This document shows positions 1,895-49,619 of a stretch of 64,000 bases of DNA, piece by piece (within the stretch, counting starts at the first letter, position 1; every line of letters begins with the position of its first letter). Under the pieces are notes generated by a model that did no database searches, was not told the origin of the DNA, and was given only the letters and a program-made list of their open reading frames with translations. Location of the stretch: the NCBI GenBank assembly GCA_964386355.1, contig CAYLQQ010000002.1:45374-109373 (forward strand). Reading direction: 5' to 3'. The stretch comes from an uncultured Pseudomonadales bacterium. GTDB lineage: Bacteria > Patescibacteriota > Microgenomatia > UBA1400 > UBA1449. Position numbers and translations under genes: made by a program.

Positions 1895-4150
1895 TCAATA
1901 CTCCGGAAGGATATTATAAACAATTGTTCCCTCGTATAGATCAGATGGCTGAAGATAATTTACCTCTATTGCATAGCTTACATAAACCGTTTTTTCTTCA
2001 GCTTCTTGTGAGGACATGACGCTGTGTGAGATGGTGCTTAAAGGACCAAATTTTGCTGATGCATTTGACCACCCCTCCACTCTTGTATCAGATGTATTTA
2101 CGCCCACCCAGCCCGTATTAACGTTCCGTACTATGCCATTTGGTGCTGACCATATTTGTGGGGTTTGCCATGTGACAGAAGTTGCGGCAAATTCATCAAT
2201 ATTATTATCGGGGTAGTTCCCCTGCATTTGATTATACAGTTTGACGCTAACATCATAGCCATAGTCTGTATTGCTGTTTACCGTCAGCTTGTGAGATCCG
2301 AACTTCGGTACGCCAACACTGAGATTACCGAATGGAAGGGTAGTGTGGGTTGTGTTTATATTTGTTGTAATTCCGTTGTTTGAAGTTCCTGTAGGTACAC
2401 CTTCGATAGCAAAAGATAAGCTAGGAGTAGCTCGATGGTATATATCAAATGTTTGTCCATCACTTTGTACTGCTGAAAATGATTGTAGAAGCAAGAGATC
2501 TGAATATATGGTTTGCTCAATGGGGTATGTTGTATAGTCGCCTGCGGTTTTATTGATTCGGATGTAGTACAGAGGATGTCCACCATTTACGGTTGATTTA
2601 GTCCATTCATTCGGAACAGTATAGTACACATTTCCAGCACTTGTAAATGTGCTAGCTCCTGAGTTGCTATTAGATATTGCAAGGGTAGACCAGGTATCAC
2701 AAGGAGTATTGATATCCAAGTTTGAGCCGCAGTAAGACCAAACGGTTATAATACCAGAACCTGCACCTTTGGTTTGTAGTTGGGTATTTACACCGCTAAA
2801 CTGCGTGTGATTACCCAGGTAAAGGTAATCATTAGAATTGTCAAAAATCTGGTAGCTGCCCTGATCAAAACTGGCATTATCTTGACTATCAGCCAAGTAC
2901 TCATTTGTATCAGATGCCAAGCCACCTCTTGCCAGCTGTTTCCAGGTGTTTGAGCTGTCATAAAACCAAGCTTGTGAAAATGGTATTAAATTGGCATTAT
3001 AATCTGTATTGATCGTACGGTTTGTGCCTTCGATAGAGAAATTGGTTGGTACATTGCTTGTGCGCCAGTTTCTAAATTTGAATATAGGGGCATATCTTGA
3101 GTACGTTTCCCCATCCAAATTAAAAGAAATTATATTGTTTGAAGTTATTAGCGGGTAACTGTTTTGGGTTTGGTTAAAGTAGTCGCTTTCTCCTGTATTG
3201 GTAAACTCACTAGCAGAACTCCAGGCTGAACCTACAGATATTTTGCCAAATAAGCTGTCTGGTTGCCATAAATCTACAGCATAGCTTTTTGCTTCATTAC
3301 CGCTTAAGCTATTATCGTCAGTAATCTGAAAAACATAAGTATACGTATATGACTGTCCTCCAGAAAGACTATCATCAGTAATCAAACCGGCTGTAATTAC
3401 ATTTTCATCATTCTGGTATAAAAATTCATTATTTGGGAAAAAGCTGGGTACTTCTAGGGCATGTATCATGTAATCATTATCAGTACCGGTAGCTGGGTCA
3501 GAACCGGTGAGTGTTAGGCTAATCCCAGGAGCTGTGTATGTAATGTCAGCCACGCTCTGAATAGCTGCGCTTGGTGTGACGGTACCAGGAGCTGTATCAT
3601 GATCAGAAATAAAAGCATTTTCATCAAATAAGCTTGGTGCAAACGAAATGTAAGGTCCAGTCATTCCAGTACCAGCTGTGGATGAGCTAAAGGCACCATG
3701 CACCACAATCCTATCGGGATATATGGTATAGATTTGGGTATATTCTCCATCATTACTAGAACCGCAAGCTCCGTCTGTAAAATCATAGAGATCCCCGCTT
3801 ACTGAGATGACAATTCTTGTTTGAGTAGATTCCAAAAGGTGTATTGAAGCATTACTTTCACAAAACATGCTGTTTGTATCTCGTGTGACTAAACCCATTC
3901 CATATAACCGATTTGAAGTGCTACTAGTATCGATAATATTAGTGCTGCTTGAGCTGGGAATAACTAAGCTCGATAGTACTCCCCCGAGATCGCTCCTAAA
4001 CGTTGCTTTCCAGCTCGGGGTGGAATTACTGTTAACAACAATTGTGGTTGCAGTTATAGAGTCTACGCTCACTGATGCGGCATATACTTGTTGAGTGCAG
4101 GTCAGAAAGGTGAACGATATGAGAAATAGAAAGATACATGTTAATCGCAT
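1895..4150 (-). CDS. Large secreted surface protein with a C-terminal domain paralogous to the neighbouring 369-aa protein (WxL-like, tentative)
   Basis: Sec signal peptide (MRLTCIFLFLISFTFLTCTQQVYA/AS) and a Ser/Thr/Asn-rich beta-type composition. The last ~185 aa align with the C-terminus of the 4229..5338 product (TLPFGNLSVGVPKFGSHKLTVNSNTDYGYDVSVK...NTGWVGVNTSD...YVSYAIEVNYLQPSDLYEGTIVYNILPEY). Confidence 0.7.
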   Translation of the reverse strand: MRLTCIFLFLISFTFLTCTQQVYAASVSVDSITATTIVVNSNSTPSWKATFRSDLGGVLSSLVIPSSSSTNIIDTSSTSNRLYGMGLVTRDTNSMFCESNASIHLLESTQTRIVISVSGDLYDFTDGACGSSNDGEYTQIYTIYPDRIVVHGAFSSSTAGTGMTGPYISFAPSLFDENAFISDHDTAPGTVTPSAAIQSVADITYTAPGISLTLTGSDPATGTDNDYMIHALEVPSFFPNNEFLYQNDENVITAGLITDDSLSGGQSYTYTYVFQITDDNSLSGNEAKSYAVDLWQPDSLFGKISVGSAWSSASEFTNTGESDYFNQTQNSYPLITSNNIISFNLDGETYSRYAPIFKFRNWRTSNVPTNFSIEGTNRTINTDYNANLIPFSQAWFYDSSNTWKQLARGGLASDTNEYLADSQDNASFDQGSYQIFDNSNDYLYLGNHTQFSGVNTQLQTKGAGSGIITVWSYCGSNLDINTPCDTWSTLAISNSNSGASTFTSAGNVYYTVPNEWTKSTVNGGHPLYYIRINKTAGDYTTYPIEQTIYSDLLLLQSFSAVQSDGQTFDIYHRATPSLSFAIEGVPTGTSNNGITTNINTTHTTLPFGNLSVGVPKFGSHKLTVNSNTDYGYDVSVKLYNQMQGNYPDNNIDEFAATSVTWQTPQIWSAPNGIVRNVNTGWVGVNTSDTRVEGWSNASAKFGPLSTISHSVMSSQEAEEKTVYVSYAIEVNYLQPSDLYEGTIVYNILPEY

Positions 4151-8164: not shown

Positions 8165-11973
<3,809 letters not shown>

Positions 11974-21849: not shown

Positions 21850-22003
21850 AAAAAAACCGCCATAGTTCCCCATCAAAAAGGGCCAATCTGGCGGTACCAC
21901 CTAATTCTTTACTTATCCTGCTATTACGGGCTTACCCGTTCCGGTTATTACTCCGGACAGCTCGTCCTTTGTCAGAGGACTCAGACGCTTGTATGATTTA
22001 TTA
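21850..22003 (-). promoter_or_regulatory. T-box-like tRNA-sensing leader of aspS (specifier GAC) with intrinsic terminator
   Basis: The minus strand carries AUUAGGUGGUACCGCC (T-box sequence). It overlaps a terminator CCGCCAGAUUGGCCC...GGGGAACUAUGGCGG+U7. A 5' hairpin GUCCU-CUGACAA-AGGAC carries the Asp codon GAC followed by A. A TTGTAT-17-TATAAT promoter lies just upstream (-10 at 22010..22015). Confidence 0.75.
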
Positions 22004-32995: not shown

Positions 32996-35290
32996 ATGTA
33001 TTGGGCAGATAAAATCGCAGATCAGATTGTAAAAAGTGGACAGCATAAACCATACTGGGTTGATGATATGAAAACCCCCTCTGGAAGGATTCATGTTGGG
33101 TCTTTACGGGGTGTGTTGATACATGATTTTGTCCACAAAGCTCTTATGCATCAAGGAAAATCCTCGACTTTTACGTATGTGTACAACGACATGGATCCAA
33201 TGGATGCATTACCGGGGTACTTAGATAAAGATGTTTATACTCAACATATGGGTAAGCCTCTGTATAAAATACCTGCACCTGAAGGTAACAAAAGTTTTGC
33301 TCAGTATTATGCCGATGAGTTTACTGGGGTTTTTAATCGCCTTGGGGCAACTCCCAAGATAGTGTTGTCGCATGAGCTGTATGAATCCGGCCAGATGAAT
33401 CCTCTTATACAGATAGCTTTAGATAATGTTGAAGAGTTAAAACACATTTATCGCGACATTGCTCATTACGAATTAGAAAAGAACTGGTATCCATTTCAGG
33501 TATTCTGTGAGCACTGCGGAAAAGAGGGTTCTACTACAACCTATCATTGGGATGGTGAGTATGTATATTACCGATGTGAAAAAAGTAAAGTAGAATGGGC
33601 TGTTGGCTGTGGTCATGAGGGCAAGGTTTCACCCTTTAACGGTACCGGTAAATTTCTTTGGAAAGTTGACTGGCCAGCTCACTGGAAGTTGATTGGTATT
33701 ACTATTGAAGGTGCTGGAAAGGATCATACTTCAGCCGGAGGTTCCCGTGATATGGCTCGGGAAATTGTGAAGCGTGTTTTCAAATACCCTGAGCCGTATG
33801 ACATCCCTTATGAGTGGTTGCTTATCCGTGGTGCCAAAATGTCTTCATCTAAAGGTATTGGAGCCTCTGCTAAAGAGTTTGCTGATCTTTTACCTCCGGA
33901 AGTGGGTAGGTTCTTGTTTGCCCGTACCCATTGCAATACAGTAATCGATTTTGATTTAGTTGGTAATACCATCCCTGATCTATTTGATGAATATGACAAA
34001 TGTGCACAGGCATATTTTAGTGGTAAACAAGATATGTATGCCCGGATTTATGAAGCTTCACAAGTGACTGATAAAAAATCAGATCCCGTATTTTTACCAA
34101 GATTTAGAGATGTAGCAATGTATAGCCAAATGCCCAGCGTTGATCTGATTGCAAAATTTGAACAGGTAAAAGGTTCTATCTTATCACCTGCAGAAAGGCA
34201 TATCCTGGAAGAGAGGGTAAATTACGCAAAGAAGTGGATTAAAAACTATGCTCCGTCTAATTTGAACTTTCAACTCTCAGATAACTCAACTCAATCTGTA
34301 ACACTTAATCAAAAACAGAAAGATTATTTAGGCTCTGTAATAGCGTTATTACAGAAAACATGGAATAAACCGGAAGATTTTCAATTTGAGCTGTTTGAAG
34401 AAACAAAACGACTTGGAATTTCAGCCAAGGAAGCTTTTGCTGCCATTTATCAGATACTGTTAGGTAAGAATTTTGGTCCTAAAGCAGCATGGTTTCTGTT
34501 GGAACAGGATAAAGAAGAGTTAATTAAGCGATTTAGCGAGGTGATAGGAGAAACTAATAAAAGTGATGTATCCATTTCCCAAACTTTTCCAACAATTACT
34601 GACTCAAAGATGATACAAATCAGTACAGCCATTGCACATCAATACCCTTCAGTGCATATCGGGTTTGCCATTATCAGAGGCATACAAGTGGTCAAAACCA
34701 ATGAACAGCTAGAACAAGAAAAAGAAACCCTATATGCAAAACTAAAAAGCATGACGACAGAAGAGATTGGCACTATGCCAGAGATCTTAAGTTATAGAAA
34801 AATGTACAAACAAATGGGGGTAGATTGGCATTCCAGAAGGCCTAGTCCAGAAGCTTTACTACGCCGTATCGTACAAGGCAAGGATTTGTATGCTGTAAAT
34901 ACTTGCGTTGATGCGTACAACCTGATTGTGATGAAATATAGAGTAAGTGTCGGGACATTTGACCTAAAAAATTTGGATTTTCCGGTAGAACTGTGTGTTG
35001 CGAAGGGTGGAGAAAAGATATTGCTTTTGGGCAATGATGAAGAAACCGAAATAAAAGCAGGTGAAGTGTATTATCAAGATCAAACTGGACCATACAATCT
35101 AGATTATAACTACAGAGACTCTCAGCGGGTGAGTGTGAATGAAGACACTGAAGACATTATGATCAACGTTGATGGCGTGTATGATGTTGGTAGACCACAT
35201 GTAGAAAGAGCACTGAAAGAGACTTTAGAGATTATCAAAAAGTACTGCGGTGGAGTGATAGAAGTCGCTGGTATTATTGAAGCGAAATAA
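32996..35290 (+). CDS. lysK: Class I lysyl-tRNA synthetase fused to a C-terminal B3/B4 (PheRS-beta-like, COG3382-type) domain
   Basis: Class I core: PSGRIHVGSLRGVLIHD (HIGH-type), GKDH, KMSSSKG (KMSKS). The C-terminal ~228 aa (34604..35287) read ...ILSYRKMYKQMGVDWHSRRPSPEALLRRIVQGKDLYAVNTCVDAYNLIVMKYRVSVGTFDLKNL...YNYRDSQRVSVNEDTEDIMINVDGV, the B3/B4-domain family pattern. Confidence 0.85.
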   Translation: MYWADKIADQIVKSGQHKPYWVDDMKTPSGRIHVGSLRGVLIHDFVHKALMHQGKSSTFTYVYNDMDPMDALPGYLDKDVYTQHMGKPLYKIPAPEGNKSFAQYYADEFTGVFNRLGATPKIVLSHELYESGQMNPLIQIALDNVEELKHIYRDIAHYELEKNWYPFQVFCEHCGKEGSTTTYHWDGEYVYYRCEKSKVEWAVGCGHEGKVSPFNGTGKFLWKVDWPAHWKLIGITIEGAGKDHTSAGGSRDMAREIVKRVFKYPEPYDIPYEWLLIRGAKMSSSKGIGASAKEFADLLPPEVGRFLFARTHCNTVIDFDLVGNTIPDLFDEYDKCAQAYFSGKQDMYARIYEASQVTDKKSDPVFLPRFRDVAMYSQMPSVDLIAKFEQVKGSILSPAERHILEERVNYAKKWIKNYAPSNLNFQLSDNSTQSVTLNQKQKDYLGSVIALLQKTWNKPEDFQFELFEETKRLGISAKEAFAAIYQILLGKNFGPKAAWFLLEQDKEELIKRFSEVIGETNKSDVSISQTFPTITDSKMIQISTAIAHQYPSVHIGFAIIRGIQVVKTNEQLEQEKETLYAKLKSMTTEEIGTMPEILSYRKMYKQMGVDWHSRRPSPEALLRRIVQGKDLYAVNTCVDAYNLIVMKYRVSVGTFDLKNLDFPVELCVAKGGEKILLLGNDEETEIKAGEVYYQDQTGPYNLDYNYRDSQRVSVNEDTEDIMINVDGVYDVGRPHVERALKETLEIIKKYCGGVIEVAGIIEAK

Positions 35291-46345: not shown

Positions 46346-47008
46346 TTATTTGCATAGAACAAACATATTTGATAGGTTTCTGATCAGCTTTATATCAGAA
46401 AAATGTTTTTCAAGCTGTTTGATCAGCTTGGGAACCTTTTGTTTGTATTGGTCAAAGAAGAGATGATTAACCAGTAATTGACCTTGGGGATTAATAGTGT
46501 GTCTTATTTTATCTAGAAATTGTGTTTGATATAATTGCTTAGGTATCTCATGACCCTGGTACAGATCTACCAAGACTAGATCGTATTTCTGATTACAGTT
46601 TTGTATCCAGTGAAAACAGTTAGATTGAATTAGTTGTAAGGAAACAGAATTATTATTACGTACAGTTCTAAAATATTTTTCATAGATTACAATCATGACC
46701 GGATCTATTTCAATGCCTGTGATTTGGGCATTGGGGAATTTTTTAAATAGGAGTTGGGCAGCGGTACCACCGCCAAAGCCGAGGATCAATATTTGTAAGG
46801 GTACATCATGATGCACCCCTACTGATTTCAATGGTTTCTGCCATAGGTCTTTGATAATACTTCCGGATTGCAGCAGGCCTCCAGCATAAATTTTCCGCTG
46901 CCCAAATTGTTCGACAACCATAACCTCCCCGTTATACTGAGAATTGTATGTTTCTATTGTGTTTGGGAATAAAAATTTAGATGCTTTACTTAGAACCATA
47001 GTACTCAT
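46346..47008 (-). CDS. Spermidine-synthase-like class I methyltransferase-fold protein
   Basis: ILILGFGGGTAAQLL (motif I), ITGIEIDPVMI and LVDLYQG, as in spermine/spermidine synthase-like proteins. Confidence 0.6.
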   Translation of the reverse strand: MSTMVLSKASKFLFPNTIETYNSQYNGEVMVVEQFGQRKIYAGGLLQSGSIIKDLWQKPLKSVGVHHDVPLQILILGFGGGTAAQLLFKKFPNAQITGIEIDPVMIVIYEKYFRTVRNNNSVSLQLIQSNCFHWIQNCNQKYDLVLVDLYQGHEIPKQLYQTQFLDKIRHTINPQGQLLVNHLFFDQYKQKVPKLIKQLEKHFSDIKLIRNLSNMFVLCK

Positions 47009-47779: not shown

Positions 47780-49048
47780 TTATCTAATGTTCTCTTTACC
47801 CATGTACGATTGTAGTACTTTTGGTACATATACCGATCCATCTGCTTGTTGGAAATTTTCCAAAACTGCAATTAGAATCCTCGGGCTGGCAATAGCAGTA
47901 TTATTGAGCATGTGGACAAATTTTATTTGGCCATCCTTGGCTTGGTACTTAACATTTGCTCGTCTTGATTGGTACTCACCCATCATTGAGCAAGACATGG
48001 TTTCACCATACTCCTGCCTTCCGGGCATCCAAGTTTCGATATCATACTTTTTGACTTGAGGCTCACCCATATCGCCAGTACACATAAGTAACACGTGATA
48101 TGGGAGACCTAATTCCTGAAGAATTTCTTCTGAATATGATCTTAGATTCTCATGCCATTTCTTTGATTCTTCCCAGTCATTTTTACATATAATAACCTGT
48201 TCAACCTTAGCAAATTCATGAATGCGGTAAATTCCTTTTGTATCTTTGCCGTAACTACCGATCTCCCGCCTGAAGCACTGGCTATATCCTGCATACAACT
48301 TTGGCAGTTCTTTTTCTGGTAAAGTTTCATCCATGTGGTATGACACAAGCGGAACTTCGGCTGTACCTGCCAGGTAGCGGGCATCCTGATTGTCTTTATC
48401 ATCATATGTTTTGTAGACATCTTCTTTACCCCAAGGGAAATGGGCAGTGTTGTAAAACGGACGTTCGAGTAAAACAGTGGGAGGAATTACCGGAGTGAAG
48501 CCTTTTTCTATTAATTTTTTTAGTGCAAATTGCAGAATTGCCAAGTGAAGTAGGGCACCATCTCCCTTTAGGTAATAACCTCGAAATCCTGCAACCTTTA
48601 CACCCCTGTCCATGTCAAGTATTCCTAGGTCTAAACCCAGTTGGATATGGTCTTTAGGCTGGAAATCGAACTTGGTAGGCTCCCCCCACTTTGAGATCTC
48701 AATGTTACCGCTGCTGTCTTTACCAATGGGGACTTCTGGAGCAGGGACGTTTGGAATAGTGAACATCAATCTATCATATTCCTGTTCAACCTCTCTCAGT
48801 TGCGGTTCAAGGGCTGCTAATTGGTCTTTGAGTGCTTTGCCCTGGTCAATTATCTCCTGACTTGGTTTGCCAAACACCCCTTTCATCAGGTCATTGCGCT
48901 GCTTGCGAATTTCTTCAGTTTGCTTAATTAAGCTGCGTCGTTTCTCATCAGCTGCTAATAGTTCGTCTATGGTATCTTTGACACCTTTACTTGCAGCAGC
49001 CTGCTTGACCAAGTCTTTGTTGTCACGGATGAATTGGATATCTAGCAT
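47780..49048 (-). CDS. serS: Seryl-tRNA synthetase
   Basis: N-terminal coiled-coil arm (MLDIQFIRDN...), motif 2 FRREIGSYGKDTKGIYRIHEF and motif 3 region LNNTAIASPRILIAVLEN. Confidence 0.93.
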   Translation of the reverse strand: MLDIQFIRDNKDLVKQAAASKGVKDTIDELLAADEKRRSLIKQTEEIRKQRNDLMKGVFGKPSQEIIDQGKALKDQLAALEPQLREVEQEYDRLMFTIPNVPAPEVPIGKDSSGNIEISKWGEPTKFDFQPKDHIQLGLDLGILDMDRGVKVAGFRGYYLKGDGALLHLAILQFALKKLIEKGFTPVIPPTVLLERPFYNTAHFPWGKEDVYKTYDDKDNQDARYLAGTAEVPLVSYHMDETLPEKELPKLYAGYSQCFRREIGSYGKDTKGIYRIHEFAKVEQVIICKNDWEESKKWHENLRSYSEEILQELGLPYHVLLMCTGDMGEPQVKKYDIETWMPGRQEYGETMSCSMMGEYQSRRANVKYQAKDGQIKFVHMLNNTAIASPRILIAVLENFQQADGSVYVPKVLQSYMGKENIR

Positions 49049-49131: not shown

Positions 49132-49300
49132 CCAAAAACCGCCACTAACCCTATACGTAAAAGGGCCAATATGGCGGTACCACCTTTATTTTGTCGCTAA
49201 AAGCATCGCTTTTAACTTCCTCAACCTGCTGTAACGGGCTTACCCGGGCTTGCATTTCCTCAAGCCAACTCGACAGTTGGAAGCTGTCTCAAATGTTGTT
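49132..49300 (-). promoter_or_regulatory. T-box-like tRNA-sensing leader of serS (specifier UCC) with intrinsic terminator
   Basis: The minus strand carries AAAGGUGGUACCGCC (T-box sequence). It overlaps the terminator CCGCCAUAUUGGCCC...GGGUUAGUGGCGG+U5. A 5' hairpin GACAG-CUUCCAA-CUGUC carries the Ser codon UCC followed by A. It shares the CGGGUAAGCCCGU(U/A)A.AGCAGG block with the aspS leader. Confidence 0.75.
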
Positions 49301-49316
49301 ATATATAGATACTATA

Positions 49317-49619
49317 TCACCTATACCATCTTAATTCCAACGCTGTGATATCAACAGCTGGACATCCACAGGTAGCGTATTTTTCCTGATCGCCAAACGG
49401 ATCGATTGTAATGATACCCATCGTTGGGGTGTTTTTTGAATTTTCTCTAAGCTCTTGTTGTGCAAGATATGCTTTAAAATCCTCAGGTAAGCAAGTAGTG
49501 TCCATTCTGGTTAATTGTGAAGCTTTTTGATGATATTCTTGTTGCTCAAACAATGCCCATAAACAAATATTGCCATTTGTGACTGCTAATCTACGAGAAC
49601 ATTTTTGTTCAACTGACAT
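49317..49619 (-). CDS. Hypothetical Cys-containing small protein
   Basis: 100-aa ORF with no family recognised. Confidence 0.4.
   Translation of the reverse strand: MSVEQKCSRRLAVTNGNICLWALFEQQEYHQKASQLTRMDTTCLPEDFKAYLAQQELRENSKNTPTMGIITIDPFGDQEKYATCGCPAVDITALELRWYR

Follow-up and report, generated by a model that had tools for sequence, protein, structure and literature searches.

T-boxes are a model system for the recognition of tRNA through RNA–RNA contacts, and they are antibiotic targets. Ultrashort ileS T-boxes were reportedly described in Actinobacteria (Nocardia farcinica, Mycobacterium) by Sherwood et al. in 2015. T-boxes of this ultrashort type are described as translational, confined to ileS and characterized in Actinobacteria (bioRxiv 10.1101/2023.02.28.530422; PMC10651847; PMC12990946), and the structure of one of them, PDB 6UFM, is cited in PMC10651847. 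Their affinity for tRNA needs a string of purines of the Stem II S-turn, placed on the codon–anticodon helix, together with a pseudoknot (PMC7583486). Stem II has 37 nucleotides (nt) in M. tuberculosis and 48 nt in N. farcinica, with the S-turn in the middle of the helix (PMC12647780). The short-Stem-I model of TBDB is limited to Actinobacteria and to class I matches with a truncated Stem I (PMC7778990). Here, we analyzed the leader of the seryl-tRNA synthetase gene serS in a 64,000-nt stretch of contig CAYLQQ010000002.1, deposited as an uncultured Pseudomonadales bacterium; this whole stretch is called the window below. The leader is very probably a compact T-box riboswitch that attenuates transcription, and from its sequence it most likely senses uncharged tRNA-Ser(GGA). 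A sister leader precedes the aspartyl-tRNA synthetase gene aspS in the same window, and we compared both with related leaders of the candidate phyla radiation (CPR).

Architecture of the serS leader

The serS leader combines a T-box sequence with its bulge, an antiterminator and a terminator, a cognate specifier, a kink-turn (K-turn) and an F-box; therefore, we assign it to the T-boxes (Table 1). The five elements listed for it in the original prediction are all found on the minus strand at 49297-49134, and all hairpins of the leader, as well as the terminator, are recovered by RNAfold. At the sequence level, the K-turn has both tandem G–A pairs and the AAC/GUU C-stem. The flanking 'GAG' motifs noted earlier are indeed present, and they are the two halves of this normal T-box K-turn. 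Between them, an ultrashort Stem I displays UCC in its terminal loop; the leader lacks a long Stem I, whose internal specifier loop, AG bulge and distal loop would form the elbow platform. Stem II is a miniature hairpin in which the GAA half of the S-turn is retained, the AGUA half is degenerate and the distal helix is missing; its loop AGGAAAUG is common to five serS leaders. The IIA/B block CGGGUAAGCCCGUUACAGCAGG follows directly. It ends in the conserved tail ACAGCAGG, and a second copy with two mismatches lies 5' of aspS, as the original prediction held for the two leaders, with none expected from 100 shuffles. The pseudoknot pairing of this block is putative: position N14 varies, while the proposed IIB partner was held constant by the search pattern.

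The 3' part of the T-box region AAAGGUGGUACCGCC doubles as the 5' arm of the terminator. The segment ACCGCCA...CCCUUU is used by both the antiterminator and the terminator, and the two structures are mutually exclusive. The Rfam model of the T-box, RF00230, was run at its gathering score of 93 bits and in E-value mode. In the latter mode it aligns the serS leader from the first to the last position with 50.2 bits (E-value 5e-8 for the whole window). Good alignment extends over the K-turn, Stem IIA (a hairpin and the F-box CCGUUA after it), Stem III and the T-box, including its UGGN bulge and the antiterminator, and AAAGG-UGGUACC-GCCA...UGGC-CCUUU is placed on model positions 186-219 with high posterior probability. 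The score is low because the leader lacks positions of the model: the 7-nt loop stands in for 76 consensus positions of Stem I, and nine positions that separate the GAA half of the Stem II S-turn from its AGUA half are missing.

The start codon of serS follows 85 nt downstream of the run of U residues that closes the terminator. Thus, the terminator and its position point to attenuation of transcription and not to sequestration of the ribosome-binding site (RBS). It is very unlikely that the leader acts on translation initiation by covering the RBS, which would agree with the ultrashort-Stem-I T-boxes described earlier, all of them translational (bioRxiv 10.1101/2023.02.28.530422): the competing hairpin is rich in G+C and leads into UUUUU, it ends too far upstream to cover the RBS, and a stable hairpin with a T-run overlapping the antiterminator recurs in 95 of 105 related leaders among the matches listed. 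These were counted by the overlap itself, as a first terminator test, in which the 5' arm had to start at ACC, was too narrow.

We propose the following course for a T-box that attenuates transcription. The nascent RNA would form the K-turn and the 5-base-pair (bp) Stem I, which would show UCC in its 7-nt loop, and then the 20-nt Stem II with its purine loop, Stem IIA/B, the small Stem III and the T-box fold. The anticodon GGA of uncharged tRNA-Ser would pair with UCC and its free 3' NCCA end with the bulge, where UGGU (49182-49179) is the predicted partner. These contacts would stabilize the antiterminator, and RNA polymerase would read through into serS. Charged tRNA could not make the 3'-end contact, and the terminator (49178-49134) would form and end transcription. 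Since Stem I lacks the distal platform that binds the tRNA elbow, the affinity would have to come from the scaffold of K-turn, Stem II and IIA/B, and the purines of the Stem II loop may dock on the codon–anticodon helix as in the actinobacterial ultrashort ileS T-boxes. We infer the binding of tRNA, this role of the Stem II loop and the regulation in vivo from the sequence.

A consensus scan placed a candidate promoter upstream, with an extended -10 box that ends 14 nt before the K-turn. The serS transcript would thus probably start about 7-14 nt before the K-turn. The relatives L002, L003 and L005 have boxes resembling TGnTATAAT at the same spacing to the leader as in the window.

Table 1. 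Positions of the serS leader, its aspS sister and adjoining features in the window
Feature	Position	Strand	Details
serS T-box leader	49297-49134	minus	5' of serS, same strand
Candidate promoter	49311..49340	minus	-35 TTGGAA, 18-nt spacer, extended -10 TG-a-TATAGT (49319-49311); consensus scan
K-turn, 5' half	49289..49297	minus	C-stem AAC (49297-49295), bulge AUUU, G49290 A49289; aligned to RF00230 GA motif
Ultrashort Stem I	49272..49288	minus	5-bp GACAG/CUGUC, 7-nt loop CUUCCAA (49283-49277)
Specifier UCC	49281-49279	minus	next base A49278
K-turn, 3' half	49267..49271	minus	G49271 A49270, then C-stem GUU (49269-49267)
Miniature Stem II	49247..49266	minus	6-bp GGCUUG/CAAGCC, purine-rich 8-nt loop (49260-49253), without distal helix
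IIA/B block	49246-49225	minus	Stem IIA CGGG-UAAG-CCCG (49246-49235), F-box CCGUUA, conserved tail
Small Stem III	49198..49214	minus	(U)AAAAGC-GAU-GCUUUU(A), 7 bp, loop GAU; RNAfold
T-box sequence AAUAAAGGUGGUACCGCC	49173..49190	minus	bulge UGGUACC (49182-49176)
Antiterminator	49160..49187	minus	A1 AAAGG/CCUUU, 7-nt bulge, A2 GCCA-UAU-UGGC; RF00230 alignment
Intrinsic terminator	49134..49178	minus	ACCGCCA...UGGCGGU, inner GGCCCU/AGGGUU, UUUUU (49138-49134); RNAfold -19.8 kcal/mol
serS	47780..49048	minus	422 amino acids; list of open reading frames; Pfam Seryl_tRNA_N and tRNA-synt_2b
aspS sister leader	21850..21989	minus	precedes open reading frame 21810-19930, aspartate--tRNA ligase
aspS Stem I	21980-21964	minus	GUCCU-CUGACAA-AGGAC, specifier GAC 21973-21971
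aspS mini Stem II	21957-21940	minus	part of aspS leader
aspS IIA/B block	21938-21917	minus	part of aspS leader
aspS T-box	21904-21890	minus	part of aspS leader
aspS terminator	21894-21857	minus	part of aspS leader

Loop triplets and helices among the relatives

We scanned one genome per species with CGGGTAAGCCCGTNANNGCAGG and obtained at least 118 sites, which together with the window gave 121 unique leaders; the survey counts refer to the matches listed from these sites. Nearly all come from CPR-like metagenome-assembled genomes (MAGs), labeled Patescibacteria, Microgenomates, Pace-, Woese-, Gottesman-, Moran-, Magasanik-, Buchanan-, Nomura- and Saccharibacteria, and a few are chance matches in coding DNA. 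Four matches from outside the CPR (L010, L036, L066 and L112, from Bacillota, Clostridia, Peptococcaceae and Chloroflexi) have the same IIA/B block and a long Stem I, and they score 56-106 bits with RF00230. The first long open reading frame (ORF) 3' of each site was clustered and named with NCBIfam. These genes encode AspRS (31), SerRS (29), IleRS (33), ValRS (11) and ProRS (1; n = 105), and no Thr, Leu, Phe, Tyr, Trp, Gly, Ala or Met leaders are among the matches listed. Thus, T-box control in these bacteria seems confined to a few synthetases.

The triplet in the Stem I loop follows the downstream gene. It is UCC or AGC, two unrelated serine codons, in serS leaders (CUUCCAA, CCUCCAA, CUUUCCA, UUAGCAG, CUAGCAC), GAC in aspS leaders (CUGACAA, CUGACAC), AUC in ileS leaders (CUAUCAA, CCAUCAC) and GUC in valS leaders (CUAGUCA, CCAGUCA). 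When the hairpin was picked blind to the content of its loop, the cognate codon was present in 71 of 102 loops; 10,000 permutations of the labels gave 40.3 ± 4.0 cognate loops and a maximum of 56. A pick that takes the K-turn flanks into account raised the number to 79 of 102, and the misses are mostly wrongly picked hairpins or leaders from outside the CPR. In a matrix that admits any hairpin, AUC is found in 33/33 ileS, GAC in 24/29 aspS and GUC in 7/10 valS leaders. Taking the strongest hairpin 5' of Stem II as Stem I was abandoned: in about a quarter of the leaders, that of the window included, the choice wrongly fell on an A+T-rich hairpin of the promoter or on an additional one inserted between the two stems. 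Therefore, the unbiased, flank-aware and any-hairpin counts are all given. This tabulation of triplets against genes, which the original prediction had called for, agrees with its claim that the loop triplet is the specifier.

The same relation is seen within single genomes, several of which yield three to five leaders with every triplet cognate to its own gene. Examples are LCJH01 (L024 UCC, L033 AUC, L097 AAC), PFRS01 (L017 AGC, L074 AUC, L103 GAC) and CAZKZW01 (L011 GAC, L012 AUC, L053 UCC, L060 GUC). An A stands directly 3' of the codon in 64 of 78 leaders. Both window leaders fit the frame UGA-G(stem)-CU-NNN-AA-(stem)C-GAG, so the shared frame of the original prediction holds for this pair; across the 44 leaders with 7-nt loops, C-U-NNN-A-A is the consensus and not a fixed sequence: the codon occupies positions 3-5 in 34 of them and positions 4-6 in nine, for example in CUUUCCA (serS) and CUAGUCA (valS).

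Four AspRS-type leaders show AAC, an asparagine codon, in place of GAC in the Stem I loop (L063, ~3175-3295; L072, 5991-6098; L081, 2327-2431; L097, 6027-6144). Two of their genes are of the bacterial AspRS type, and two match the model of aspartate--tRNA(Asn) ligase. The position of these loops before AspRS-type genes suggests that such leaders may sense tRNA-Asn where the genome provides Asn-tRNA by the indirect route.

The helices of the leader are maintained across orthologues. We aligned 13 compact serS and aspS leaders with MAFFT. An earlier MAFFT alignment of 19 sequences was dropped and superseded by this one because its Stem I, which varies from 5 to 7 bp in length, was structurally inconsistent. 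In the final alignment, 95.7% of the cells are paired, compared with 74.7% after shuffling and 24-45% with slid 3' partners. Compensatory changes occur in 12 of 18 pairs: four of five in Stem I, all six in Stem II and two of three (pairs 1-32 and 2-31) in the C-stem of the K-turn. Stem IIA is invariant, since it was fixed by the search pattern. The serS orthologues with 69-85% protein identity carry the same leader, and their Stem I helices vary (GAAAG/CUUUC, GGCAG/CUGCC, GGGAG/CUCCU) with an unchanged loop ...UCCAA; UCC-A is retained on the stems GAAAG, GGCAG, GGGAG, GAUAG, GGUGA and GGAAG.

The discriminating bulge also varies with the gene. UGGC is present in 22/29 Ser and 18/31 Asp leaders, and UGGU in 28/33 Ile and 8/11 Val leaders. 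G73 is expected for tRNA-Ser and tRNA-Asp, and A73 for tRNA-Ile and tRNA-Val; thus, the split by gene family fits pairing with these discriminator bases. Three CPR tRNA-Ser genes in the surveyed loci have G73. ARAGORN found 13 tRNAs over all loci, too few to judge the discriminators of Asp, Ile and Val.

These observations bear on two further explanations. The leader could be a decayed relic that is now blind to tRNA and persists as a constitutive, leaky terminator or simply as structure in the 5' untranslated region. CPR genomes are reduced, and both the elbow platform and the full S-turn, which are important for binding in model systems (PMC7583486), are missing. However, in orthologues with 60-85% protein identity, compensatory changes keep the helices of Stem I, Stem II and the K-turn while the UCC-A loop is constant, and in about 100 leaders both specifier and UGGN still correspond to the gene. 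A relic would be expected to lose such features, and we give it only a slight chance. Least probable of all is a conventional T-box, in which a longer Stem I, as the four matches from outside the CPR have, would carry the true specifier at its canonical place in an internal loop, and the triplet of the hairpin loop would match by coincidence. The roughly 14 nt between the extended -10 box and the K-turn and the 76 deleted Stem I positions leave no room for such an internal loop, which the original prediction had named as the finding to contradict it, and the loop codon tracks the gene in four synthetase families and within single genomes.

Several points weigh against a tRNA-sensing T-box as the reading of the serS leader. 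First, its score of 50.2 bits is below the Rfam gathering score. Second, the seeds of the alignment were picked partly because they form hairpins, in addition to the IIA helix being set by the search pattern. Third, the window leader has UGGU, which would form a G–U wobble with G73 of tRNA-Ser, and no tRNA-Ser(GGA) gene is found within the 64-kb window. Finally, the canonical elbow platform is absent, and enough affinity would have to be reached without it.

Genomic setting and variation of the leaders

At the gathering threshold, the single Rfam match in the window is a tRNA and no T-box is reported; the aspS leader has no Rfam match even at E ≤ 1, and none of 18 related CPR leaders tested reaches the threshold. 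We also built a covariance model from the 13-leader alignment. With filters off, the only leaders it finds in the window are the aspS and serS copies (108.6 and 93.4 bits). In 100 related loci, it finds one leader each. A match at 9794-9874 on the minus strand was rejected, as it has 15 bits, is antisense within an ORF and contains neither Stem I nor IIA. The sequence GGTGGTACCGC has a third exact copy (46761-46771, minus strand) within the methyltransferase-like ORF 46346-47008, where a score of 5 bits marks it as a chance match. Upstream of lysK (32996-35290, plus strand), the model gives no match, in line with the earlier remark that this gene has no such leader. The lysK product is a class I (archaeal-type) lysyl-tRNA synthetase of 764 amino acids. 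The family model TIGR00467 spans residues 1-515 only, which leaves an unexplained C-terminal extension of about 250 amino acids.

The top named homologues of the window SerRS are serine--tRNA ligases of Candidatus Beckwithbacteria and Patescibacteria, and the host is a member of the Patescibacteria (CPR) that resembles Beckwithbacteria. Many of the leader-bearing MAGs were deposited under titles such as 'uncultured Pseudomonadales', 'Gammaproteobacteria', 'Bdellovibrionales', 'Vitreimonas sp.' and 'Limisphaerales', and one such 'Pseudomonadales' isolate is named HK-STAS-PATE-16. These deposited names look wrong or like placeholders.

Across the CPR set, the type of Stem II goes with the amino acid. 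Among the listed leaders, a long Stem II with the S-turn GAA...AGUAGA is present in 33/33 ileS and 9/10 valS, and a mini Stem II, in which 4-6 bp close a loop of about 8 nt that is rich in purines (GGUARYAA or AGGAAAUG), in 25/29 serS; the aspS leaders are divided into 13 mini and 16 long. This pattern fits the published role of the S-turn for weak, A–U-rich codon–anticodon helices (PMC7583486), although valS fits less well. Most of the listed CPR leaders have 16-20 nt from the IIA/B block to UGG, so that Stem III is absent in most of them, including the aspS leader (21917-21890), in which the stretch that begins with the K-turn and ends with the antiterminator has about 110 nt. The window serS leader, unlike most relatives, does have a small Stem III. 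To our knowledge, Stem III is considered indispensable in characterized T-boxes.

Additional elements are inserted in some relatives. A long, repeat-like, A+T-rich inverted repeat, for example TAACTAGTAATTAGTAAG...CTAATTACTATTTACC, takes the place of Stem III in L020, L022, L028, L033, L042, L092-L095, L098 and L109. An added small hairpin lies between Stem I and Stem II in L005 (9775-9815), L016, L040, L114 and L121, where the gap between these stems is about 20 nt instead of 5. In L042, there are two tandem hairpins, and UCCAA is displayed in each. Lastly, short palindromic elements lie between the terminator and the serS start in L003 (4100-4140) and L002 (905-960); these palindromes, GTCATCCTGAGCG...CGAAGGATC and GTCATTGCGAGACC...GTGGCAATC, resemble dispersed repeats, and the window serS leader has none between its terminator and start codon.

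Comparison with known T-box classes

The original prediction of a minimal T-box class governing several synthetase genes is borne out by the serS, aspS, ileS and valS leaders of the CPR. We consider it an even question whether these represent a phylum-wide and apparently undescribed family of miniature transcriptional T-boxes in Patescibacteria, with a Stem I resembling an anticodon stem-loop, that controls mainly these four genes. The proposed traits of the family are a 5-bp Stem I with the loop CU-NNN-AA, often a Stem II with a purine loop and often no Stem III. In the literature that we searched, T-boxes are not connected with Patescibacteria, CPR or Saccharibacteria in any paper, which leaves room for transcriptional ultrashort precedents elsewhere, and priority for transcriptional ultrashort T-boxes is uncertain. 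If the family is real, the identity and charging of tRNA would be readable without the elbow platform, the full S-turn or Stem III, and three elements deemed essential in one or other T-box class would be dispensable together. Such a family would be invisible to annotation based on Rfam. Its natural leaders for four or five amino acids would provide ready minimal constructs for studying how tRNA identity and charge are read, and CPR bacteria, with tiny genomes and few known regulators, would retain tRNA-sensing control of several synthetases.

Among the known systems, canonical class I T-boxes (RF00230; Bacillus subtilis tyrS) share with the serS leader the position in front of a synthetase gene, the K-turn, a cognate codon with C in the third position, the F-box and IIA/B region, Stem III, the UGGN T-box and an exclusive antiterminator and terminator. 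However, Stem I has 17 nt in the serS leader and about 90 nt in class I, and the internal specifier loop, the AG bulge, the distal loop and the distal helix of Stem II are lacking in the serS leader. Without the AG bulge and the distal loop, the leader therefore makes no elbow contact. The glyQS T-boxes are likewise naturally reduced and attenuate transcription, but the reduction is reversed: glyQS keeps the long Stem I with the elbow platform and drops Stem II and IIA/B, and the serS leader does the opposite.

The closest likeness is to the ultrashort ileS T-boxes, which also have a short, K-turn-based Stem I without an elbow platform, whose apical loop presents the specifier and next to it a purine, and then Stem II, the IIA/B region with the F-box and the UGGN discriminator. 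The terminal-loop specifier claimed in the original prediction is thus real and not unprecedented, since it defines these actinobacterial T-boxes (bioRxiv 10.1101/2023.02.28.530422; PMC10651847). The window leader differs from them in four respects. First, it belongs to serS, with a sister at aspS and relatives at ileS, valS and proS, and its specifier is UCC. Second, it has a terminator/antiterminator switch in place of RBS sequestration. Third, it occurs in Patescibacteria and not in Actinobacteria. Finally, its Stem II hairpin has 20 nt, of which 8 form the loop, compared with 37-48 nt. In summary, the serS leader is best filed nearest the ultrashort-Stem-I kind, as a transcriptional, multi-specific and CPR-wide version with a miniature Stem II.

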